DNA of 64,000 bases, taken from a virus. Below, piece by piece: positions 3,001-64,000 of this stretch. Every line of letters starts with the position of its first letter. Position 1 is the stretch's first letter. Where the stretch lies: positions 27,382 through 91,381 of IMG/VR virus record IMGVR_UViG_3300047509_000177; one strand, written 5' to 3'. Below the pieces are notes generated by a model. It searched no databases. It was given only the letters and a program-made list of their open reading frames with translations, and had not been told where the DNA came from. Position numbers and translations under genes: made by a program.

Positions 3001-4495
3001 GATTGGTATAGCTGAATTTTCTGAAAAAAATCTCGCTGAAGAATCGAAATATCTTCAAACCGAACAAAAAATAATTGATAAAGCTATATCTGAAACTAGA
3101 AAAATAAAACCAAAAAATCAGAAGCAAGCGCAAGCAAAGTCTACCGCATTGAAAACTTTAGCTGTAAAACAAAAAGAACTTCTTGAAACTATAGATCAAA
3201 ATGTAGAAGCTAGATACCAGGCTGAGGCTCAAACTATCCAGGCTAAAATAACTGAAGCTAATAATCAATATCAAGTTTCTTCCCAAGAACAACAAACTAA
3301 AATTTCTAAAGCTCAGGCTTTTGGTAATCTTGGAGAAGTAGGAAAGTTGGAGGAACAAACTGCTACTTCTGCTCAAGCTCAGATTTCTAGGCTAACCCCT
3401 ATGCTGGAACAAGCTCAGAAAATTGGTAATAAGGAACTTGAATCTAGTATAAAACAAGAAATTATTGGTTTACAGCAAACTATAAATACTACAGTAATAG
3501 AAAGAATCTCTAATGCACAGACTTTGATACAGAGAGAATCGGCGCAAGCTGAATCAAAAGTTGGTAGAAGGCTTGGGATTGCAAAGGTATTATCTGCTGA
3601 AGGAAGATATAGTGCTGCAAACGCTGAAGAAGAAGTAGGATTAAAAGAAAAAGGAACCAATTTACTCAATACCAGAGCGGTAGAGGAAAAACTAAAAGAA
3701 CAAGCTTTGCGGGAAGGCGATACTGCTGCTGCTATAACTTTGGGCGAGGAATTGGAAAAGAACAGTGTAGAAATAGCTGAAAATAATCTTGCTCTAAAAA
3801 ACAATGCTGCTGTGACAAGGGAATTAGTTCTTAGTCAAATAGGAAGAGAAACAGGAGTTGGAACAGGTATTTATGGGGCGCTTCGATCCGGGATCGAAAC
3901 AATAGGAAAGACAACTGGATTTACAAATGTTGCTGCTTTGATAACTACTGCAAAGGGCGAAGGCGCTGTGCTTGGGGCGGGCGAGAAAAAATATGAGGAA
4001 ACAGGAACTGAAATGGGATTTCAGACTGTTGGTATGACTGCTCAGCAGGTTCTTCAATATCTTACTTCTCCTGAAGCACAGTCTATAATCTCTAGAATAG
4101 AGACTACGGGCACAGAAGCAGAAAAAGCTGATCTTGAAAAGTGGCTTTTTGGGATAGAGGGCAACTCTGTTGCTATTTTGAAGAATACAGAAGAACTTGC
4201 GAGGTTGAATGGGCAGCTAAATCAACCGCAAAGCTTTTCTACTGCTGCTTTCAATGCCTTCAGGACTTCTTTCTTTACTGGCATGGGAGGGCTATTAGAA
4301 CCTTATTCGGCGGCGCTTCCGCCGGGATCTCGCCCAGAAGGTCTTCCTGTATATGGTTCTGGGCAAGTTGGAGCGCCTATGAGTTCAACTCATATTGAGA
4401 ATATCAATCTTACTCATCCTGTAGAGAAGCTTCATCCGGGTCTGTTGGGAGAAGAATTGTCCTACCATATTTCAGTGACACCGCCTACTTCATGA
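14..4495 (+). CDS. Tape measure protein (probably 5'-truncated by the window edge) with M23-peptidase-like and SLT lytic transglycosylase domains
   Basis: Long Ala/Gly/Lys/Glu helical protein with hydrophobic stretches; GRTDQGIDY (M23-like) and ESGWN...SSGAYGIPQ (SLT) motifs; lies upstream of the tail-tip genes. Confidence 0.9.
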   Translation: MSTVTGFTGAVKSATEWVKSHGPEVTKFFKEAREGLETIGGLLFTIGKDFLEAFSLSSLRALSGFLSQFLLPGLRDVINIIGKITTAVLDFFNLFGSAGRKALEVLAAFVLGTLGLIKVIAFINELRKAIIELWATIVALEGLAFWTAIGAGIVAAAAALGLFDSAQKKTKITTEEINNALERQAEALRTIKSLNDEYASSKLSVEEANLRVTQSEQTLARAKHSLAHPERPLSREERAEAVIGIKQDEQSVTRARLSAREAQENFEKLPEQQRETAKKETSVARKSAAEARALNKQNTEELRSLEKERTEAEQKISKGREVGGSIGHEIEVNAKSEVVKINEKIVSSNKKLKESQESLGTAVLRENEAINSSNALTSQGASKYSTAFAEAFSKFEESVRKGASSAHDGMGKIRKLVDDALKKYGVTPAEIASGSSAIGKVSSGISSAGRAVSKGLEGFASGGYIPAKSGGQIARVGEGGHDEVVLSTDPKYAGRSRALLGQYFSRAPHMAAGGYIYPFHGGATKGRTDQGIDYDLTPGSPITSIGDAKIKGIISNWFKGQSFLWYELLSGLDKGKNVYIAEQINRLSQVGSTVRAGQPIAYYAPSGTGLEIGWATSSGQTLAQATTGYREGQVTPAGASFGAFISGLQQGKVVGGLQAFKEIIAPKVKGGGIIGQISQRALNLAAKAANIYLEKHISSGGEANFAGVSGHGGAPSANEALGKRMMVAAGWPVGMWPSLQALWTQESGWNANSVNSSSGAYGIPQSLGHGHPYNLGDARAQIAWGLNYIRERYGSPVAAEAHERAFNWYAKGGVIQAVREFAAGGRAPWGGRPVPIIAHEGERIMNPAQYNATASLAGISPRGLDKYLGYDGSPRQNFAAGGGPIAIGQRSQPMSEFEPNLISQFTNIIFEIGNISNILKSFNKVKKAFSKLKKSSGENFVKNLEKIINEIVIETNGVLARLQEGREFFKARLERKSVEKEYTAKGGKIQLGSKGQIGIAEFSEKNLAEESKYLQTEQKIIDKAISETRKIKPKNQKQAQAKSTALKTLAVKQKELLETIDQNVEARYQAEAQTIQAKITEANNQYQVSSQEQQTKISKAQAFGNLGEVGKLEEQTATSAQAQISRLTPMLEQAQKIGNKELESSIKQEIIGLQQTINTTVIERISNAQTLIQRESAQAESKVGRRLGIAKVLSAEGRYSAANAEEEVGLKEKGTNLLNTRAVEEKLKEQALREGDTAAAITLGEELEKNSVEIAENNLALKNNAAVTRELVLSQIGRETGVGTGIYGALRSGIETIGKTTGFTNVAALITTAKGEGAVLGAGEKKYEETGTEMGFQTVGMTAQQVLQYLTSPEAQSIISRIETTGTEAEKADLEKWLFGIEGNSVAILKNTEELARLNGQLNQPQSFSTAAFNAFRTSFFTGMGGLLEPYSAALPPGSRPEGLPVYGSGQVGAPMSSTHIENINLTHPVEKLHPGLLGEELSYHISVTPPTS

Positions 4496-4502
4496 GGTAA
4501 TA

Positions 4503-6140
4503 ATGGCACGAGTTCAATATATAGATGTAATAATAAATAATTTAGGTGTGCCGCAGAAAAATGTGATTCTTACTGTAGTTCCTATTGCTGGTACGTCTGC
4601 TACAAACAAATTATGGAAAGAAGAAACTGGTCCTACGGAACTGGCAAATGTTATTACTAATTCTAATGGAGTCTTCTCGGTATGGCTGGATGAAGGAAGA
4701 TATGAAATAAAATTAGAAGGTACTGTTGTTAGAAAAATTGAGTTAATAAATCAATCGTCAGTTATAGTTTCTTCTCATTATGTAAAAGAAGAAAATAATA
4801 ATCTATCATTTGGATCTTCTTTATCAGGTTTGACTACTGGCAAAAATAATACATCTTTTGGAATTGGGGCGCTAGCAGGTGTTACTACTGGAGAATATAA
4901 TGTAGCTATTGGGAGTAAATCTCTTGTATCTATGGCAACTAGTGCTGGATTAGTTGGAATAGGATATAAAGCTTTAGAAGTAAACACTACTGGTATTGAA
5001 AACACAGCAGTTGGATATGAAACATTAGCAAAAAATATTAGTGGTAACTATAACGTTGCTGTAGGTTATATGGCTCTTTCCAAGGCAACTGGCCAAGGTT
5101 TTAATACGGCAGTTGGTAAGAGGGCATTGGAAAGATCTACAAGCGGATCGGGGAATGTTGCTGTAGGTAGTAATGCTTTGAATGCTTTAACAACGGGAGA
5201 AGAACATGTAGCTGTAGGTTGTGAAGCTATGCAAAATCAAACTGAAGGAATTGGTAATGTTGCTGTAGGATTTCAGGCTCTATTATCTTGTACAACTGGC
5301 GCCCCAAATGTAGCTATTGGATATCAATCTGCTCATCTTATTACTACTGGGACTGCAAATATTTCTATAGGCCGCGAATCTCTTAATAAAAATGTAAGTG
5401 GGGAAAAGAATATAGCGATAGGAAGCGAAGCTTTATTTGTATCTACTTCGTCTAATAATATTTGTATTGGCCAGGGGTCAGGAAAGGCTCTCACTACTGG
5501 TAATGAAAATATAGCTATAGGAACTGCTTCATTATTTACTTCTGCTACGAATTCTAGAAATATTATAATAGGTAGAAGTGCTGGGAGAGAAATTACCGGA
5601 GGTGGTAATGTTGCTATAGGAGTAGAAGCTTTATTTAAGACCTCTGGAGAAAAAAATACTGCTATAGGAACTGAAGCTCTAGAAAAACTTCAAACTGCTG
5701 GAGAAAATGTTGCTTTAGGGTATAAGGCTGGAAAGTTCCTCAATGCAGGATCAAAAGGCAATGTATATATTGGGAATGAAGTTGGTCCTACTTCTGAAAA
5801 AGAAGAATCTAATAAGCTTATTATCCATAACAAAGGTGTTACTACACCGACTACAGAATCTCTTATTGTTGGAGATTTTTCGGCGAAAACTGTTACAATA
5901 AACGGGCATTTAACTACTAGCCAAAATACTGTTCCGAGTGAAGTAGGACGGAGCGCTGAAATGGTTGGTGGTGAAATTACTATAGCTGCTCCTGCTGTTA
6001 CTGCTACAGGAGTGATTAATTTGTCTGAGGAGGGAACAGTAGCGGCTGGTTTGGCTTTTACTAGGGAAGTTGGTGTTGGATTTAAAATAAAATCTACAAT
6101 AACTAATACAAATCGAGTGAATTGGGCTGTTTATAATTAA
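4503..6140 (+). CDS. Tail fibre/spike with 14-residue beta-helix repeats
   Basis: Many N-[TV]-A-[VI]-G-x-x-AL-x-x-x-TTG repeats; follows the tape measure. Confidence 0.75.
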   Translation: MARVQYIDVIINNLGVPQKNVILTVVPIAGTSATNKLWKEETGPTELANVITNSNGVFSVWLDEGRYEIKLEGTVVRKIELINQSSVIVSSHYVKEENNNLSFGSSLSGLTTGKNNTSFGIGALAGVTTGEYNVAIGSKSLVSMATSAGLVGIGYKALEVNTTGIENTAVGYETLAKNISGNYNVAVGYMALSKATGQGFNTAVGKRALERSTSGSGNVAVGSNALNALTTGEEHVAVGCEAMQNQTEGIGNVAVGFQALLSCTTGAPNVAIGYQSAHLITTGTANISIGRESLNKNVSGEKNIAIGSEALFVSTSSNNICIGQGSGKALTTGNENIAIGTASLFTSATNSRNIIIGRSAGREITGGGNVAIGVEALFKTSGEKNTAIGTEALEKLQTAGENVALGYKAGKFLNAGSKGNVYIGNEVGPTSEKEESNKLIIHNKGVTTPTTESLIVGDFSAKTVTINGHLTTSQNTVPSEVGRSAEMVGGEITIAAPAVTATGVINLSEEGTVAAGLAFTREVGVGFKIKSTITNTNRVNWAVYN

Positions 6141-43333: not shown

Positions 43334-43474
43334 AAAGGAGTAAAAATGACTTTAGTAGGAGCTTTGGTTGTTATTGCAATAATAGTAGGAGTAATATATA
43401 TAGTGAGTAGAATCAGGTGAAATAATAATAAGAATTGGCACAAACATACATGACTCACCCACAGAACAGAGGGC

Positions 43475-43885
43475 ATGAAAGAGCGTGGAGGGCAAGTTCG
43501 CGCGGAAGTTATTCCTAACGCGAAAAGCGACACGCTCAAGCCCCGTGTTCGCAAGGCCGTACAAGCCGATTCAACTCTTTACACGGACCAGTGGAAGGGC
43601 TACCACGGCCTCGATGAGAACTTCGACCACCAGACCATCAACCACGCGGAACATTATGTTGACGGTCGAGTCCACACAAACGGAATTGAGAACTTCTGGT
43701 CACTACTAAAGAGAAGTTTGCATGGAACTTATGTATCAGTAGATCCTTCTCATCTTTTTAGATATCTTGACGAGAGAGTATTTGCTTTCAATCAAAGATA
43801 TCTCAGTGATTACGGACGTTTCGAGACTGTGCTACTGGCCGTGACCGGCCGCCGCTTGACGTACCTGGAATTGACTAGCACCTAA
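43475..43885 (+). CDS. IS1595 (ISXO2-like) transposase, C-terminal fragment
   Basis: YTD...Y...H..INH...HTNGIENFWSLLKR...HL.RYLDE; lacks the Zn ribbon, HTH and first catalytic Asp. Confidence 0.85.
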   Translation: MKERGGQVRAEVIPNAKSDTLKPRVRKAVQADSTLYTDQWKGYHGLDENFDHQTINHAEHYVDGRVHTNGIENFWSLLKRSLHGTYVSVDPSHLFRYLDERVFAFNQRYLSDYGRFETVLLAVTGRRLTYLELTST

Positions 43886-43964
43886 TTGTGCTACAGAGCG
43901 ACGTGCAGTAGCTGCTATTAACGAGCGAGCCCCGGCCGGAGGTCAGTCCGAACCGGGGCTCTAT

Positions 43965-44038
43965 GGTGGCGGTAGTTCAATTGGAAGAACTCCCGACTTA
44001 AAATCGGGATCGTGCGGGTTCGAGGCCCGTCCGCCACC
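43965..44038 (+). tRNA. Atypical tRNA: anticodon UAA, short variable loop, His-like G-1:C73 acceptor
   Basis: G-GTGGCGG/CCGCCAC-C, GTTC/GAAC D-stem, CCCGA-CTTAAAA-TCGGG, GCGGG-TTCGAGG-CCCGT. Confidence 0.85.
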
Positions 44039-44200
44039 TTTCTTTCAATCAAGAGGTTATCGAAAGAAAGAATTTTTTGGGAAAGTATCAATGATTTTCT
44101 TTGCTTCGCTGTTGCGGATGCTTTGGGTGAGTCATGTATGTTTGTGCCAAAGGATTTGCAGTCCTTTCCCTATCAATCTCGGGCATCGCCATACGCAGCT

Positions 44201-44764: not shown

Positions 44765-45630
44765 TTAATTCTCCATCTCAAAAATTCCTCCAACGGAAAA
44801 TTTCCTAGTGTGCTACAAATGTTCTACAAGTAGCTATCTTATCCGAGACTTTGATAGCTGATAGTGGCGATCGACCGGGAATTAGCATGTTATATATATT
44901 AGTTATGCTAATGCCTTCTCAGACCACAATTCACAAGTTTATAGCTGTACTACCCATTCTACTTGGTTTACGTTTACTAATGCTTTTATCGGCGAGTTTT
45001 GTCCGCCAGTGGGTTTTTCTTCTACTTCAACAAATCCTGCACCATCTTCTTTAGTTGCTTCTTTTGCTAATGTTTTCCATTCTGTTAAAGAAGTTGGTAT
45101 AGAACAATCTTTCTTTTCGGTATCCCCAGGAGAACCATAGGAATTTAGATATATTCGCACGCCTGCCATAATTAATATTCTATCACTGAACTAAGATCAT
45201 TTACATTAAGAGCAAATTTCTGTGTAGAAGTATTAGGGATTTCTAGACCTTGAGGGTCTTTAGTTCCAACAGCTAATTCAAATTCAAGAAATCCTGATTC
45301 TTCATGCACGGCAGTTTTTGCTTTTTCGAGATAATGGGCTAGGGTTGCAGATACCCCACCAACTTTAGAAGCATATTTTCTTTCTACATTGCCTGGAGCA
45401 GCAAATGTTTTGTAGTTCAGCAAGAGCTTTTCAGCCATTTGTAATATCTCCCATGAGAGTATTTTCTTTGTTCTATTTCGGCGCAAATCGCGCCGAGAGT
45501 GTCATGACAGGAGACAGTATACAGATAAATTGAGGGCTCTACTCATAGCGGCTACTACAGATAGAGCCCTCTGGCGGGAACGTTGATGGAGCGGGCTTTA
45601 ACGTGCCCATGGTGAGTATATCAGAATTTC

Positions 45631-45648
45631 GGTAGTGGGTCAGTTTGA
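45631..45648 (+). repeat. Solo IS1-family-like terminal repeat
   Basis: GGTAGTGGGTCAGTTTGA near the start of a GC-richer segment; no partner copy seen. Confidence 0.35.
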
Positions 45649-45697
45649 AATCTCAGCCTACAGCAGGTTGTAGTTCGCGCATGTCGAATCGAGAGCT

Positions 45698-46051
45698 ATG
45701 GCCTGGTTCAAGACTCATGGATGGCGCGTGCTCCTCGCGGCTGCTGTGCTCGCTATCGCGTTCTGGGCAAGCAATGAACACGGGGTACCGAAGAATCTCC
45801 CGGCCCCTGCTCTCGGCTGGCGGCTGCTCTTCCATGTAGAGCGTGCCGTAGTCTTGCTGACGGCCATTGGCGCGGTGCTTTTGGTCGGTTGGCGAGCACT
45901 ACACGGAGAGTTTCCCATCAAGTTCGGACAACTAGAATATGCTGCTAAAGAGACGGCCGATAAGACCGACAGTCTAACTGGAGTTTTTGAGCAAAGACTT
46001 CAACTCGTAGAGGGTTTGATCGGTATTGCGGACCCGGCCCCTAAGGAGTAG
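45698..46051 (+). CDS. Small two-TM membrane protein (GC-rich, host-like)
   Basis: Hydrophobic helices; codon usage unlike the phage core. Confidence 0.55.
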   Translation: MAWFKTHGWRVLLAAAVLAIAFWASNEHGVPKNLPAPALGWRLLFHVERAVVLLTAIGAVLLVGWRALHGEFPIKFGQLEYAAKETADKTDSLTGVFEQRLQLVEGLIGIADPAPKE

Positions 46052-46338
46052 AATGAGGACTTAATGACGACAGAGCAAAACAAATATTCGTACACCGGTG
46101 TCAACCTAACCCCTACTTCGTCTGAGCATGATCAACGTCGTGCAAAGCTTCTGGAGCAGGCCCGCAGAGAAGTTCCAGCACTACGTGAACAGGTGGCAGC
46201 AGATCGAGCCGCTCTGCGTCGTATCGCTAAATCGTAAGAACGCAGCTAGGAGGGAAAGACGAAACTAACTACGAAACGCCGGGCAAACATTGTGACGTAT
46301 AGCACAAAGACACCCTTGTGCTACAACTTCGCTAGATG

Positions 46339-46422
46339 TGCGGCAGACGGGACTCGAACCCGTAATCCGTGGTGGGAACCCGGGCTCTAGCCGGGCGCGT
46401 TTGCCAGTTTCGCCACTGCCGC
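46339..46422 (-). tRNA. Leu-type tRNA body with anticodon AGA (Ser)
   Basis: GCGGCAG/CTGCCGC, A73, D-arm GCGAAACTGGCAAACGC, CCCGG-CTAGAGC-CCGGG, long variable arm. Confidence 0.8.
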
Positions 46423-46520
46423 ATGTAGTGCTCTACCCCCTCCAGAGCAGTCGAGAAATACCCCAACCACCAAGTAACGATTGATACTAGAAATCTAATG
46501 ATGCTTGTGCTACAAATATG

Positions 46521-46605
46521 TGCGGCGGACAGGATTCGAACCTGCACGGTGCGATGCACCCCGACTTGATGAGGGCCGGTGCGTCTACCATTCCGCCACC
46601 GCCGC
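46521..46605 (-). tRNA. Leu-type tRNA body with a 9-nt anticodon loop centred on CAU
   Basis: GCGGCGG/CCGCCGC, A73, GCGGAATGGTAGACGC, CCGGC-CCTCATCAA-GTCGG, V-arm GGTGC-ATC-GCACC. Confidence 0.8.
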
Positions 46606-46761
46606 GAGTCCCGGCCTGATCCGCCGGGACTCCGCGCATTCTAGCCGCCTACTTCTGACCTTCTGCTCGCTCAATCAGCTGCTATCAGGCGGTTCGGACG
46701 GAACTTCTATCCGCTGCTGATCGAGGACTTATGCACAGTGCTCGGCTAAGATCGGCTGCAC

Positions 46762-46855
46762 GGAGGGCGCTCCTAAGTGGTGTGTGGGGCCGGGCCTTCA
46801 TCCCGGTGACCCGTCTGAGACACGGCGGCGATTGGTTCGATTCCAACGCCCTCCG
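46762..46855 (+). tRNA. Allo-tRNA-like gene (8/4 fold, selC-like appearance), loop CCUUCAU
   Basis: 8-bp acceptor GGAGGGCG/CGCCCTCC, G73, 4-bp T-stem TTGG-TTCGATT-CCAA, long variable arm. Confidence 0.7.
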
Positions 46856-47001
46856 CAAGCTTCAGCCGAGCTTGTAGAACAACAGCCTATCATTAGATTA
46901 TTTGTGCGGTACGTTACAAACTATCTTTGTGCTCTATGCCACTATCTAGTTTCGTCGTTAGTTTCGTAGATGCTGATTCTGTTGATTGATATTGTCTGGT
47001 C

Positions 47002-47247
47002 GTGTCACGCGACTTCAAAGCTCTCGCCGAAGTCCTTGAAAGAAAGGCGAGCGACCGATGCCCATCCTGTGGTGGGCACCAATGGGCTGACTTCCGCGCG
47101 GTAGCTCTCCTGCAATACGTTGACGCCCACGAGCCGATAACCGAGTGCTATGGGCTCCCTGTGCTGCCCTTCGCCTGCCTCAACTGCGGCTTCGTTCGGC
47201 TGCATTCGACCCGCATCCTCGAAGACCAGTTCAAGCCCGAGGTCTAA
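47002..47247 (+). CDS. Small Zn-ribbon protein
   Basis: CPSC...CLNCG; GC-rich; flanked by direct repeats. Confidence 0.65.
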   Translation: MSRDFKALAEVLERKASDRCPSCGGHQWADFRAVALLQYVDAHEPITECYGLPVLPFACLNCGFVRLHSTRILEDQFKPEV

Positions 47248-47533
47248 GTAGACTTTGTGTTTGATATCACGTACATTCATGAACTAAATCGTTTCGTAGG
47301 TCGTTTCGTGGATGCTGAGATTTTAAAGGCTCGAATCATGGTTGGTATGCTTGTGGCTTTCCTAATAGGGCACAGGCCGGGAAGTGGAGCGGGCAGCACC
47401 CGGCCAGGAGAGCCCTTGGAAAAGGCCCTGTAGTATCTGGCCGGGTGTCCGCTTTAGCGTACATCTGTGTGGTATTACGTTTCGTAGTTAGTTTCGTCTT
47501 TCCCTCCTTTAGACCCTAAAACAGATTTTATCA

Positions 47534-58486: not shown

Positions 58487-59441
58487 AAGATCACTTCACG
58501 AACTGGAAAAACACGCTTACAGGACCACCATCTGACTTCTCTACACGAGTCTTGACCTCTACGCCCAGCTTCTCTGCGCGCGTCTTGAGCTGTGTCTTGA
58601 ACACGGCGAAATTAGCGGCAAAGTCTTCGCCTTCAATCGCTTGCCATACCTCACCGTTCGTCCACTCATCCCACGGGAATTTCCGCCGAGTAGTAGGCTC
58701 ATCCCACTCCAAATGAGTCCTTTTATCAATTACAGTTGCCATATAGATCAAATCCTTTCAGCCGATATATAGAGAAGTATTAGCAATCTTATGGGGACAT
58801 ACAAAATTATTATTGTTTTCTATTATTGGTTCTAGAACATTCCCTTCGTCGTCAGTCTCTATATCTAGCTCAAGCTCATAAAACCACTTGTTTGCCAAAG
58901 AGGAATCATGCTGTATAGCTATTCCTGAAATAAATTTACCTGTCATTTTATTCCCTTCTATAGAACTTCAGTACATAACTAGTAAAACATACTTCTAAGG
59001 TAACTTCAATAAGTAGTATACCACAGAATATATATGTTTATGCAACTATTTTCTTTGTTCTAAAATAATCTACATTACGTATTCTAATTTGTCTTCGTTT
59101 ATACTCTTCTTTTATCAGGGGCAGCTCGCGCCGAGATTCCTCCCGAATAGCTCTTTGTAGAAATCCTCTAAGCTCTCTAGCATCCAGCAGGTGAAGGCTA
59201 TGAGACAAGTCGGTTCTCATGTGTGAGCCTCCTTTGGCCTTCGCGAGTGAGGCATAGTTTTAGCGATGTTTCAATAGGGCTTACTCGCTCTCTTGTTTCG
59301 CAAAGTCCTTTTTCATATACACGCGTAATAACATCTCGTCGGGATCTAGCGCTCCACTCGCACCAAGGCTTCCCTGTGGCGGGAGACCAGCGCCAAAAGT
59401 CGCCGTCGATCTCTAGCAATGGGGTATCCACTTAGATGACC

Positions 59442-60419
59442 TCACAAGAGTTTGATCTGCGGCGTGAGCAGATTCCGGTAGGGATGAGGTTCGGTCACGA
59501 CTCCCTGCTCGATCAGCCGGTAGAACAGCAGGCCGCGAGAGCGGCTTGCGCGGCGGTTGAAGCGGAACACGTACTCGTCGCAGTAATAGTCCAACTGCTC
59601 GCGCGACATGCCGCCCTGATGCGTGCCGAGCAACCACCGCTTGAGCAGACTGGCGACGCGGTGAGCGTGCGGCATCGTGACGTGCGCGTCCGCTGCCTCG
59701 GGGTCGCTCATGTTCGTAACTTCATGCTGGTAGCCGTAGCGGCTGATCGAGCTGTAGCTCCCGAAGGCGTCCGTGTGGATGATCGAGCCACGCGCCACGT
59801 TGTCGAGGATGAACTCGATGAGCGTCTCGGCCTTAGTGTCCGGCACGCGAGCAAGTCGAAGGCGTCCAGCCTTGAGACGTTCGCCAGTGCGGCCGTGAGC
59901 CTCGACCGCGATCACAACGATCGCCTTCCCGTGTGGCGAGCGACCACCCGCCTTCTTGGTCTTGATCCCGCCGATAAACGTCTCATCCACCTCGACCACA
60001 ACACCGGGACCACCGATCATGTCCCGGCCAGGGCGCACCATCGCACGGCGCAGCTTGTGCATCCACGCCCACGCCGTCTGGTAGGAGCCGAAGCCAAGCT
60101 CACGCTTCAACCCGAGCGCGCTCACACCGTTCTTCTGACTAACGACGTGCCACATGACGTGGAACCACACACGCAGCGGATAGCGTGTCTTGTCGAAGAT
60201 CGTGCCAGCCGTCACGCTCGTGCGCTTGCGACACGCCGTGCAGCGCATAAGGCCGCTGCCCATGCGCCAATAGTCGCCTATGACACCGCAATGCGGGCAC
60301 ACAAAGCCGTTGGGCCATCTGATCTTCTCGACGTACGCGAGACACGCCTCCTCGCTATCGAACCGCTCGATGAACTCGCTGAAGGTGCGGGGGTAATCCG
60401 CGCTCGCAGCGGGGGTCAT
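59442..60419 (-). CDS. IS1595-family transposase, apparently intact
   Basis: RWPNGFVCPHC Zn ribbon, SVTAGTIF, EVDET, HTD, SLLKRWLLGTHQG, EYVFRFNRR. Confidence 0.95.
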   Translation of the reverse strand: MTPAASADYPRTFSEFIERFDSEEACLAYVEKIRWPNGFVCPHCGVIGDYWRMGSGLMRCTACRKRTSVTAGTIFDKTRYPLRVWFHVMWHVVSQKNGVSALGLKRELGFGSYQTAWAWMHKLRRAMVRPGRDMIGGPGVVVEVDETFIGGIKTKKAGGRSPHGKAIVVIAVEAHGRTGERLKAGRLRLARVPDTKAETLIEFILDNVARGSIIHTDAFGSYSSISRYGYQHEVTNMSDPEAADAHVTMPHAHRVASLLKRWLLGTHQGGMSREQLDYYCDEYVFRFNRRASRSRGLLFYRLIEQGVVTEPHPYRNLLTPQIKLL

Positions 60420-61941
60420 GTCGCCTCACACTGAGAGCGGGTTTCCCGGCAGAGCCGTGCGCCGCACTGGTCAAAGGGATCGGAGTGGACCGACTCTGCA
60501 TAGCCGCGTGCCACTTCTCGGCGGTGAAGCATCTCGGCCAGCTCCCACGCCCACACGGCGAGCGCATCGTAGGCCACCGCGTCTACCACCTCGGTCCCGC
60601 TGCTGACCTCGGGACCGCTGAGGATTATGCCGCCGGTGAGCTGTTGCTCCGGTCGCGCCAAGTCAACGCGTGGTAGCGATTGCACCGTCCATCGCCGCAC
60701 GCTAGCAGCAGGCGTCATGAGCGGAGCGACGGGACCGTCCTTGAGGGTACGCTTGACGAACTTCTGACAACAAGCCGCGGAGACCCAGGCGTCGCAGTCC
60801 CAGCAGAACCCCACGTTGTCCTCGTGGGCCACACGCGCGTGGCCGCAGGTGCACTGCTCGGCCTCTTCTAGTTCGGCGCGTGTCTGAACGTTCTTCCCTC
60901 CGTCCCAGCTCATGACCGCTCCTTGGAGCCATAGCCGAACCGTTGACGATCCCGTTCGATCAGGTGTGCCATTGCTGGGGCCGTGCCGCGAGGGTAGGCG
61001 TGCGGGTCCTCTTCCGCTAGGCGCTGGATCTCCGTGGCGGCGATCCAGTCCAGCTCCAGCGCGTTCGTCGCCAGCCTGTCGGCTACACGGTTCTCGTGGT
61101 CCAGCGCGGCTGCTTCAAGCTTGCTGCGTGTCTCGACGTGATCCCCGAAGCTCATGACTCTTCTCGCTCAACTAGACGGAACTGCTCCAAAAAGCGAGGG
61201 ACGGGGATGGAGTCGGGCAGCTTCGGATCAGCGTGGCCACCCGACTGCCAGACCCCCGTTACCTCGGGCGGATCGTGATGTCCACACACATGCAGGACCA
61301 CGAACCGCCCACGCGGCGAACGACTGCCCTCCCTCATCGGCACCTGCTCCCACACGTCGCCGTGGCAAGGGCGCTCAGTGTCGGTCATGATTGTGCCTTC
61401 TCACGGACAGCGACAAAGCGCCAGACCTTCTCCTGCCCCTCGAATCGCTGCGTATGACTGCGAATATCGCACTTGAGAGCTCCGCCCTGCTCGTGCCTAA
61501 TCCTGTGGATCTTCCGCTCAAGATCCCAGAAGATGATCGTGTCACCCTCCCGAAGCGCGGATGCACTGATGCGTTCTACTTGCCGCACCGGAGCGTCGCT
61601 GTCGCTGAAAGGTGTCTCGTCAGCCTCCAGGAACGCTTCGACGATCCAGCGCACCTGCTCACTGGTGACGTCGCTGCCAATCTTCCACGCGTAATCGCAG
61701 GCGGCGAGCAATGCTGGAGAATCAGGCTTGAGTTGATGCCTCATCATCGTGCCACCTCCTCGACCCGGCCGTCCGGCTTTATGAGGTAGGTAGCCATCGT
61801 GCAGGTCCGGACTTCCACCTTCGCGCAATCAGAGTCCTGCATCCATGTGGTTCCCGCCACGCCGACGGTCCGATCCAGCTCGTCGCATACGGCTTTCTGC
61901 TTGGCGTTGCCGGGAAACTTATCTGTAGGCTCAAGCTGCAT
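60416..61941 (-). CDS. Operon of five small passenger ORFs (61744-61941, 61385-61747, 61152-61388, 60910-61155, 60416-60913)
   Basis: Successive ATGA stop/start overlaps running into the transposase. Confidence 0.65.
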
Positions 61942-62949
61942 CAGGGGTTCCTCCTGGTGTCGTGCCCCGGCCGTTCACGCGGTGCGGGGCGATTTCGTTC
62001 TGTGCCCACAGTGTACCACAGATCGGGTCATCTAAGTGGATACCCTATCTCTAGCAAAGCAGTTATTTGTGGCTTGGTTAGCTTGGATGTTTTCATAATT
62101 TTGTAAGGTGGAGACTGTTTGGCAGATTCGTTCTCATAGTCTTATTCCATAGCTATCAAGACATACCTGCTTTAGCTCGCTCCCAGACAGATCGCCAAGC
62201 GAGCCTACTTCGCCTTCTCCAAGCTCTCGAAATTGGATTCCTTCATCGCGCAGATAGTTTGTATCGCCCTCCATGATCCATAGGCCACCACTGATATACG
62301 TGCAGTTAGCTTTCAGGATCTCAGCTTGGCGCGTAGTAGGTTCAACCGTAGTTTCGATCAATGTTGTCCAAAATCTCATGGCTTTATAGGTTTCCAATCT
62401 GAGATTAGGCGTATTTGATCGCGCACTTTGCGTTCCTCTCTCAACCCAAGCTCATCAAAGACTGCTTGGATGGCTGCTTCCATATGCGTGTGACCACTCT
62501 CGGGGATTGGGACGTCCAACGCTGTCAATGCTATCTCAACCAACTTAGGATCTATATTTAGATTAACTCATAGAGATTTTATTCCTCGCATATATTCTTT
62601 CTCTGATATCTCCTTTACGGCGCATTTAGCGCCGATAGAAAGCTCATATCTAAGTTGTTTACATATTCTATCAAAGTTTTTATAGTAGAAGTGGATGGTT
62701 TTTCTAGTATATTTACCAAAGTTTGTCTTATATCTAAACGTAGACTCTAGCTTATAGAATGTCATAGGCTTCTTATATCCAATAGTGTTTGGTGCCATTC
62801 CTTACGTACCATTCCCATGTCTGTAAACCAATAAATTAGATCCTCTGTACTCATAATTCTTTTAACTTTCTTTGATCCCAGAAGATATGAATAGACTGAT
62901 TCATTTTCTTTATAGTCCTGCAAGTAGCAAGTAGGATAATCTTTAGTCG

Positions 62950-63492
62950 TCATAGCTCAACCAGCTTTCTTTCTCTAGCTCGTAGAGATTCAACCTCATG
63001 CAAAAGCACTGTATTTATTCTTAGCCATATCGTGTACTCCTCATCGGCCTTATTCACGCCTCCAGCGGCTTCCAACTTGTTCATTGCATCTCGATCTACG
63101 ATCTCCGCATCCTCCACACGGGCGGAAAGTCGCGCGATATCGTCCTGTAGGCTTTTCTTAGCCTTTTCCTTTTTCTCCTGGTCCAATTCCCCTTTGCGCT
63201 CAATTGCGCCGCTTACAGCGTGTTCTTTGCAACTCCTGGGCGGCTTCCCTCGGCGTATTGGCGCTTGATACTCATGGTTACCGCCATGACAGTACAAAGT
63301 ACGTGTTAGCTCAAAGTTAGAAGCCTCAAGATTGTTATGGTCGCCGTCCTTCGGCGTTAGCTGTAGAGAAGTATAAGAACTAATATAGGGTTTGGAAGGT
63401 TTTTCAGGGCGATGCTCGGGGCATGACTTTGGTGGTCTTCCCCTTCCTTCCTTCTCCCAATAATGTTTTCCACCTTCGCAAAAAAGTCTCAT
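62950..63492 (-). CDS. Hypothetical protein with duplicated C-x2-G-x-H...RG(R/K)PP.SC..H motif and coiled coil
   Basis: Two copies of the Zn-type motif. Confidence 0.6.
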   Translation of the reverse strand: MRLFCEGGKHYWEKEGRGRPPKSCPEHRPEKPSKPYISSYTSLQLTPKDGDHNNLEASNFELTRTLYCHGGNHEYQAPIRRGKPPRSCKEHAVSGAIERKGELDQEKKEKAKKSLQDDIARLSARVEDAEIVDRDAMNKLEAAGGVNKADEEYTIWLRINTVLLHEVESLRARERKLVEL

Positions 63493-63947
63493 AGACCTAA
63501 ATCCCTCTGTGAATAGATCATATTTTCTTTTCTAAAGTTTTCAGCAACATGCGCTGCTTCAATCTCATTCTCATAATATCCTAAAGAATGTAGCTTGCCT
63601 TTGATCCGGCAATAAGCGCGCCATTTATGTCCATTTCTAGAAACCCCTCTATATCTAGAGCTACTTCCTTTGTAAGAAGGTAAGTTTTGTTGGCCATCGA
63701 ATCCACTGTCTAATATTCTTAGGTTCGACCTTCTGTTGTCGAGTTTGTTCCTATTTATGTGGTCTACAAATCTTTTGTCGCCATGAACAAGACCCGATAT
63801 AAGTCTGTGCATCTTATAGCTTTTATATTTACCATTTCCTAAGTTTTCTGAACGTTGAGCATAACCCCATGAATCTAGGAGCCTTTGGCGAAACCCTTGG
63901 CGAAACGGCTTGCGCCCATCGCCACGGAAGTCTAGCGTCGGCCCCAT
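63489..63947 (-). CDS. HNH-AP2 homing endonuclease; N-terminus probably replaced by an inserted element
   Basis: MHRLI...VDHINRNKLDNRRSNLR, SSRYRGV...W.A...LG.Y..E.EAA. Confidence 0.8.
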   Translation of the reverse strand: MGPTLDFRGDGRKPFRQGFRQRLLDSWGYAQRSENLGNGKYKSYKMHRLISGLVHGDKRFVDHINRNKLDNRRSNLRILDSGFDGQQNLPSYKGSSSRYRGVSRNGHKWRAYCRIKGKLHSLGYYENEIEAAHVAENFRKENMIYSQRDLGL

Positions 63948-64000
63948 CCTAGAAATTGGCCCCAGCGACAGCGCGAACTGTCCTGGGGCCGTGGCACCGA

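Follow-up and report, generated by a model that had tools for sequence, protein, structure and literature searches.

What kind of unit occupies positions 46248-47508 of this stretch of viral DNA, where tRNA genes and a small Zn-ribbon gene lie between inverted repeats? The window, i.e., the whole stretch of 64,000 nucleotides analyzed here, represents bases 27382-91381 of IMG/VR virus record IMGVR_UViG_3300047509_000177 (91,381 bp; estimated completeness 98%), the phage genome referred to below as G000. Window coordinates are used throughout unless a position is prefixed with G000, G001, G003 or L134 (record or locus of the respective phage). We favor, with a probability of about 55%, the reading that the 1.26-kb segment is a non-autonomous cassette bounded by terminal repeats of a new end family, which carries irregular tRNAs and is moved in trans. 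It would be comparable to a mobile insertion cassette (MIC) or a large miniature inverted-repeat transposable element (MITE), its cargo being three irregular tRNAs, the Zn-ribbon gene and a peptide or small-RNA unit with a terminator (unit D), and the family would be a small group of GC-rich elements in one lineage of phages of about 91 kb.

The arms of the terminal inverted repeat, 46248-46278 and 47478-47508, comprise 31 nt each and are 100% complementary, and both contain paired heptamers, as had been reported in a sequence-only reading of the region. Read inward, the left arm is A-GGAGGGAAAG-ACGAAAC-TAACT-ACGAAAC-G, and with the C-T before it the tip reads CTAGGAG; the right arm, its perfect complement, is followed by TT-TAG and then by 25 nt to a tRNA-Arg. 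Exact matches to GTTTCGT-N5-GTTTCGT were found four times in the window (0.00 expected from 100 shuffles), and the same four are the only ones in the whole 91,381 bp of G000, all of them in the cassette. They are site L (46259-46277, minus strand, GTTTCGT-AGTTA-GTTTCGT, 3' of tRNA1), site 2 (46949-46967, plus strand, heptamer pair followed by AGATGCTGA, 3' of tRNA3 and about 34-35 nt before the Zn-ribbon start codon), site 3 (47291-47309, plus strand, followed by GGATGCTGA, 3' of the Zn-ribbon open reading frame (ORF) and before unit D, ending 29 nt upstream of the start of the unit D ORF) and site R (47479-47497, plus strand, within the right terminal repeat). A degenerate site at about 46449-46479 on the minus strand, 3' of tRNA2, shows approximately 61% identity to the 31-nt arm in an alignment read by eye; with it, every unit has a site behind it in the unit's own orientation. 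The resulting order is tRNA2, tRNA1 and site L on the minus strand, and tRNA3, site 2, Zn-ribbon ORF, site 3, unit D and site R on the plus strand. Single GTTTCGT heptamers number 12 in G000 (approximately 12 expected), eight of which lie in the cassette, so that their frequency outside it is at chance level.

Among the four exact sites, none of the 14 heptamer columns is variable, as against 25 of the 29 spacer and flank columns (Fisher p = 4e-8), which identifies the heptamers as the selected part. Sites 2 and 3 each lie in one of two 36-nt direct repeats (81% identity) on either side of the Zn-ribbon ORF, in agreement with the earlier description of two direct copies bracketing that gene. 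When compared with viral contigs, the bare 14-base motif yielded chance singletons only and the longer heptamer-pair motif yielded no match. Two further candidate features were dropped, namely a ribosome-binding role of the AGGAGG in the inverted repeat (it is not followed by a start codon) and a 19-nt inverted match between 45644 and 47309, which is consistent with chance.

Invariant heptamer pairs could also be bound, as operators or promoter-proximal sites, by a transcription factor that regulates the units one by one, in which case the inverted repeat would arise from the outermost units facing opposite ways. Tandem 7-bp direct repeats spaced by about one helical turn are typical of some regulators. 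Each unit has a site before or behind it in its own orientation, and sites 2 and 3 end about 34 and 29 nt before two ORF starts, both with RGATGCTGA. Downstream of the two terminal sites, however, which point outward, there is no gene; a search for a consistent -10/-35 arrangement was negative, and the spacing to the upstream TGTG.. element ranges from 0 to 23 nt. In other phages, moreover, the terminal sequence is found in a different setting.

The relatives compared were three phages, namely G001 (locus L134; 65% complete), G002 (locus L135; complete, with terminal repeats) and G003 (locus L145; 91,255 bp); L134 and L135 were reached via the synthetase gene and L145 via the tRNA-flank motif. 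The outer 18-20 nt of the inverted repeat constitute an end motif, GTTTCG(Y)-N6-CTCC|TAG, which occurs in seven places in three of the four related phages. In addition to the left and right ends of the cassette (46248 and 47508), these are 63875-63906 (minus strand, GTTTCGC-CAAGG-GTTTCGC-CAAAGG-CTCC-TAG, at a GC-rich to AT-rich boundary), G000:108-127 (GC falling from 0.57 to 0.47), G000:5598-5617, G003:1302-1321 and L134:16375-16394. The strict form of the motif occurs four times in G000 and never in 300 shuffles. TAG follows the end directly in six of the seven cases, the exception being the right end of the cassette. A clear transition from GC-rich to AT-rich DNA was observed at four of the seven ends (0.62 to 0.35, 0.66 to 0.38, 0.56 to 0.39 and 0.53 to 0.43), the fall from inside to outside at these ends being 0.17-0.28. 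The CTCC|TAG tail was seen at outer ends only and not at internal sites. A second inverted pair in G000, made up of 63875-63906 (minus strand) and bases 95-127 of the genome, extends across the contig ends and is flanked by C-TA and TA-G. In G001, the ORF of an IS1595-family transposase aligns over residues 1-191 with the full-length protein of G003 (72% identity), and the match ceases exactly at CTAG|GAGACTCTAGCGAAAC, so that a recombination breakpoint coincides to the base with the tip of the motif. Taken together, the conservation of the motif, the GC junctions, the breakpoint and the second pair argue that the motif is the end of a family of mobile DNA, of which 46248-47508 would be a member with two intact ends. 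A sequence that marks several GC-rich to AT-rich junctions and a broken transposase gene in other phages is also not what operators would be expected to provide, and we regard control of each unit by a transcription factor as an unlikely explanation of the sites.

Some further observations concern these ends. The region formed by 63875-64000 and genome bases 1-127 has a GC content of 0.57-0.64, and the frame of an HNH_3 endonuclease (63489-63947, minus strand) runs through the end at 63875, so that this gene may have been interrupted. G000 positions 5040-5617 (locus L139) form an island of 0.6 kb with 61% GC, the end of which coincides exactly with GTTTCGC-TAGTGC-CTCC-TAG; its content is a small membrane-like ORF and approximately 330 nt of GC-rich non-coding sequence without a match in Rfam. 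The island of G003 (loci L146/L147) spans 3.6 kb with an IS1595-family transposase, cargo and a tRNA-like sequence, and its two flanks read (CTA)6G and C(TAG)5 (88637-88655 and 1319-1333); these repeats may represent the two halves of a palindromic target that was divided at the CTAG in its middle, or may belong to the repeat of the element. The right end of this island, which comprises terminator, ACGTAC motif, heptamer pair and tail, shares 78% identity with window positions 47443-47496.

The inverted repeat could, on the other hand, be a functionless by-product of inverted duplication, of gene conversion, or of an assembly step that joined metagenome sequences at a shared 31-mer. A k-mer size often used in assembly, 31 nt, is also the length of the arms, and island assemblies are not clean, as the start of the G003 contig has duplicated and inverted pieces. 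There (bases 1-323, L146), bases 1-95 are an exact copy of the sequence from 88687 onwards and the last 116 bases of the contig (91140-91255) recur exactly from base 208, while bases 99-192 or thereabouts look by eye like an inverted copy of approximately 88950-89045, which an exact-match search did not confirm; these duplications are either structural variants of the island in the population (deletion or inversion) or an assembly artefact. As to the inverted repeat itself, the motif is seen again at other loci and in assemblies independent of this one, phage sequence is present on both flanks of the island, and the heptamers are selectively conserved. The recurrence in independent assemblies in particular makes an artefact highly improbable.

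Comparison of cassette content among relatives had been set beforehand as a test of the sequence-only reading, and both content and location were found to vary. Related islands are present in the window, in G001 at L134 and in G003, each at a different locus, and there is none in G002, whose whole genome has no heptamer-pair site and no end motif. L135 represents the empty site: the sequence equal to window position 45571 begins within 2 nt of tRNA-Arg(UCU), and window positions 45572-47533 (1.96 kb) are therefore an insertion relative to L135. The GC-rich foreign DNA thus extends beyond the unit bounded by the inverted repeat, which is a correction to the original finding. The array of L134 (13078-13960) lies at another locus, after a 187-aa gene, and comprises a tRNA with an 8-nt anticodon loop (L134:13797-13870), the same motifs in its 3' flank, four degenerate sites and unit D; its neighbors are a DDE_Tnp_1 transposase, a helix-turn-helix (HTH) gene, a second irregular tRNA (L134:16003-16097, anticodon UGC; score with the tRNA model 64 bits) whose D-loop carries an insert of 24 nt, and an IS1595 fragment. 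Sequence identity between the window and L134 is 91% for the head of unit D and 83% for the flank of site 2. The cassette contains no recombinase, as had been stated at the outset (none in its ORF list or in Pfam and PHROG scans of the island, which also yielded no transposase), and its content and location vary among relatives; any enzyme must therefore act in trans.

A different model, that of the sequence-only reading, has [gene + site] cassettes captured repeatedly by a site-specific recombinase in trans, as in an integron or a Xer module, with segments between inverted sites being able to flip. The periodic order of unit and site and the 36-nt repeats around the Zn-ribbon gene agree with it. 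So does the comparison with L134, in which the framework (sites, tRNA 3' flank, unit D) is common whereas the tRNA and middle units differ, and in which homology breaks adjacent to the sites; for unit D it begins approximately 13 nt past site 3, a position that would also suit a regulatory site. L134 moreover holds an inverted pair of sites 120 nt apart. Tyrosine and serine recombinases (including PF00589), however, are absent from G000, G001 and G002, the three records searched for these families, and the sites are direct repeats without the inverted core halves that such enzymes need. They lack the imperfect palindromes of integron attC sites, and differ as well from Xer dif/pdif sites (7 + 5 + 7 nt in direct orientation, as against a 28-bp site with two inverted 11-bp arms and a 6-bp spacer). 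The CTCC|TAG tail is confined to the outer ends, and there is no attI-like site or integrase-proximal end. We judge this model quite improbable. Of the earlier proposal, variable content and location and an enzyme acting in trans are retained, whereas capture by a site-specific recombinase is not: the conserved feature is a terminal motif, inverted and located at junctions, which indicates transposon ends rather than integron-style capture sites. A model with a tRNA-targeting integrase was dropped, there being no integrase and no att-like direct repeat of the 3' end of tRNA-Arg; a 16-nt direct repeat (45617 and 47656) considered as an att site is actually a recurring promoter-like motif of the phage.

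In the transposon-like cassette that we prefer, the family ends would read, in outward direction, (GTTTCGY-N5-)GTTTCGY-N6-CTCC followed by TA-G. The invariant heptamer pairs would be binding sites of a transposase supplied in trans, and the outer 11 nt would carry the cleaved tip, probably in a cut-and-paste mechanism of the DDE type. The internal pairs (site 2, site 3 and the degenerate site after tRNA2) may be additional subterminal binding sites, or relics of ends from units that were joined end to end; ACGTACA lies 23 nt upstream of site 3, and the comparable spacing at true ends (right end in the window, G003) is 16-17 nt. Accretion of elements at each other's ends would provide a possible route to repeated capture.

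MICs and MITEs are non-autonomous derivatives of insertion sequences (IS) that are moved in trans, e.g., MIC231, which is mobilized by IS231A. The cassette resembles them in its inverted repeats at both ends, the lack of an internal transposase, the passenger genes, the occurrence of members at several loci with presence/absence polymorphism, and an enzyme encoded elsewhere. It differs from them in the irregular tRNA cargo, the lytic-type phage replicon that hosts it, ends that match no IS seen here, the internal heptamer pairs, and the lack of an autonomous relative with the same ends. In Tn7, Mu, Tn552 and IS21, several transposase-binding sites of 19-23 bp are present per end, within approximately 150 bp of the tips. 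Here, too, the repeated sites have the same orientation at any one end and opposite orientations at the two ends, and only the outermost adjoins the cleaved tip, whereas the sites extend up to 530 bp inside, with genes between them.

Regarding the target, Table 1 of PMC2577343 (citing Tenzen and Ohtsubo 1991) lists IS630 / Tc1-mariner elements and MITEs as targeting CTAG and duplicating TA. The TA-G directly after six of the seven ends and the C-TA before left tips fit an insertion into CTAG with TA duplication; a CTAG that is part of the repeat, or a 4-bp duplication of CTAG as in some IS5-type elements, would fit equally well. The cassette differs from IS630-type elements in the two extra T before TAG at its right end, and an IS630-type DDE_3 transposase (PF13358) is absent from all four phage records.

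DDE_Tnp_1 is present in G001 only. In a comparison of all ORFs, the sole gene common to the three end-bearing phages and missing from G002 was the IS1595-family transposase, the only type of recombinase that co-occurs with the ends; the G003 island that ends in the motif carries a full-length copy together with cargo. Its left end lacks the motif, however, the end in G001 interrupts the transposase gene instead of flanking it, and no 8-bp direct repeat flanks the cassette. No transposase with matching ends was found, and the enzyme may be encoded by the host. Two IS1595-related units reside in the window. A full element at 59413-62054 has 62% GC, 29-nt repeats that begin with CTAG, and several passenger ORFs without a family match; a unit of 716 bp at 43435-44150, with 30-nt inverted repeats that are 97% complementary, lies where the transcription arms converge and contains a C-terminal fragment of an IS1595 transposase and the tRNA-Leu(UAA).

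Several results weigh against a cassette of this kind. The repeats of these resident IS1595 units (59413-59441 / 62026-62054 and 43435-43464 / 44121-44150) are unrelated to the cassette ends, and the four phages, viral contigs and genomes of the Genome Taxonomy Database (GTDB) yielded no autonomous copy with matching ends on both sides of a transposase. A search of 185,579 GTDB reference prokaryote genomes with the longer heptamer-pair motif yielded nine matches, none of which has the terminal tail, so that they are considered chance matches; the pattern demanded GTTTCGT twice and thus covered no ends of the GTTTCGC type. The flanks of the cassette (...C-TA on the left, TT-TA-G on the right) do not provide a clean target-site duplication. 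The DNA inserted relative to L135 exceeds the unit bounded by the inverted repeat, and so does not establish movement of exactly 46248-47508 as a single unit. In the homologous cassette of L134, unit D is not followed by a terminal site. The search for inverted partners of the ends at G000:5598-5617 and G003:1302-1321 was negative, and none is recognizable for L134:16375-16394 in the sequence at hand; at the latter the GC content does not fall (0.49 inside, 0.52 outside), and at the left end of the cassette it falls little (0.57 to 0.51). Finally, the internal sites lie 188-530 bp inside the ends, deeper than in ends of the Tn7 or Mu type.

The cargo includes three tRNAs, each irregular in its own way. 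tRNA1 (46339-46422, minus strand) is of class II with a Leu-like body, A73 and the anticodon AGA, and tRNA2 (46521-46605, minus strand) is likewise of class II with a Leu-like body and has CAU within an enlarged anticodon loop; the 3' half of tRNA2 shares 93% identity with the tRNA-Leu(UAA) that belongs to the phage itself. tRNA3 (46761-46855, plus strand) is predicted by ARAGORN to adopt the 8/4 fold of allo-tRNAs, with an 8-bp acceptor stem, a 4-bp T-stem, a long variable arm and G73; it scored 45.1 bits with the Rfam model of tRNA-Sec, below the gathering score of 47. The similarity of the tRNA 3' flanks that had been noticed from the letters was found again (TTGTAGMACA, ATCATTAGATT, TCTTTGTGCT...). 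The quasi-palindromic TTGTAGMACA (TTGT-N3-ACAA) occurs ten times in G000 (approximately 0.3 expected), among others at 44809-44831, 46317-46326, 46506-46515 and 46872-46881 of the window and at 3452-4103 of the genome; seven copies lie in the phage backbone, often 7-13 nt before start codons, and the sequence resembles an extended -10 element (TGnTACAAT) or an operator. Its presence in the backbone means that a regulatory word is common to the phage and the tRNA units of the cassette.

Allo-tRNAs and polycistrons of irregular tRNAs have been linked to transposable elements and toxin-antitoxin systems (Mukai et al. 2017, PMC5389517). The phages studied here offer the same 8/4 fold, enlarged anticodon loops, an extra loop in the D-arm (L134), clustering, and transposon-related genes and small proteins nearby. 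PMC5389517 describes no terminal repeats and no cassette, whereas here the tRNAs lie within a bounded element in phage genomes.

Irregular tRNAs such as allo-tRNAs and those with enlarged anticodon loops are known mostly as scattered oddities of metagenomes with a loose tie to mobile DNA. Here they are located inside a bounded element without a transposase, the ends of which recur at recombination junctions in related phages; the cassette would thus be a concrete vehicle for their spread, and its short end motif could be used to search for further members and for the enzyme. A more far-reaching proposal, which we put forward tentatively and hold to be doubtful, is that a phage-borne, trans-mobilized family of such cassettes moves structurally and anticodon-irregular tRNAs and small regulators between phages, that inserted ends recreate CTAG, and that new units land preferentially at old ends, which builds arrays. 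If true, such array building would amount to a modular, transposon-based system of tRNA cassettes that reprograms decoding during infection.

The Zn-ribbon protein (CPSC...CLNCGFVRLH; 81 aa) is encoded at 47002-47247 on the plus strand, with a GTG start and without a Shine-Dalgarno sequence; a homolog with 64% identity starts at the same residue, which supports it as a real gene. Its family comprises 217 representatives at E<=1e-3, being one of small stand-alone proteins without an annotated family, and no family was found for the protein in Pfam, PHROG or PADLOC. A structure search with a predicted model yielded generic zinc-ribbon likeness only, and a single scan of metagenomes with the alignment of the family yielded only two unrelated high-GC loci.

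Unit D (47322-47460, plus strand) consists of a conserved head of 69 nt, to which the 91% identity with L134 (L134:13128-13196) applies, and a GC hairpin at 47396-47448. The head represents either a small RNA or an ORF (47339-47434) for a hydrophobic peptide of 31 aa. Both the phage of the window and L134 have retained the hairpin despite different sequence, which suggests a terminator. Rfam contained no family for unit D or for the other islands.

Outside the inverted repeat, the adjoining GC-rich foreign segment (45698-46237, plus strand) encodes a 117-aa protein with two transmembrane (TM) segments (ORF117, 45698-46051) and an ORF of 57 aa (46064-46237); Pfam, PHROGs and PADLOC yielded no family for it. 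The two-gene segment may be a small toxin-like or exclusion module. ORF117 has 42 homologs of metagenomic and bacterial origin, some on contigs of bacterial (Mb-scale) size, and no relatives in viral contigs; it is a member of a bacterial family of small membrane proteins. Actinomycetota was the most common phylum in an atlas look-up, which is to be taken as a lead only. Comparison of the island DNA with GenBank phages and PLSDB plasmids yielded zero matches.

G000 is a tailed phage with a GC content of about 41.7%, within which the island at 45640-47510 reaches 54-55%. Its genes include those for a tape-measure protein, terminase, DNA polymerase, helicase and a class-II aminoacyl-tRNA synthetase, as well as several tRNAs; they are oriented on the plus strand up to about 44 kb and on the minus strand beyond, so that the transcription arms converge. 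From the elements described here, lytic-type phage genomes of approximately 40% GC appear able to withstand the repeated entry of GC-rich insertion elements, both next to tRNA genes and where the arms meet. The insertion locus of the island is marked by the tRNA-Arg(UCU) of the phage (47534-47605, minus strand).

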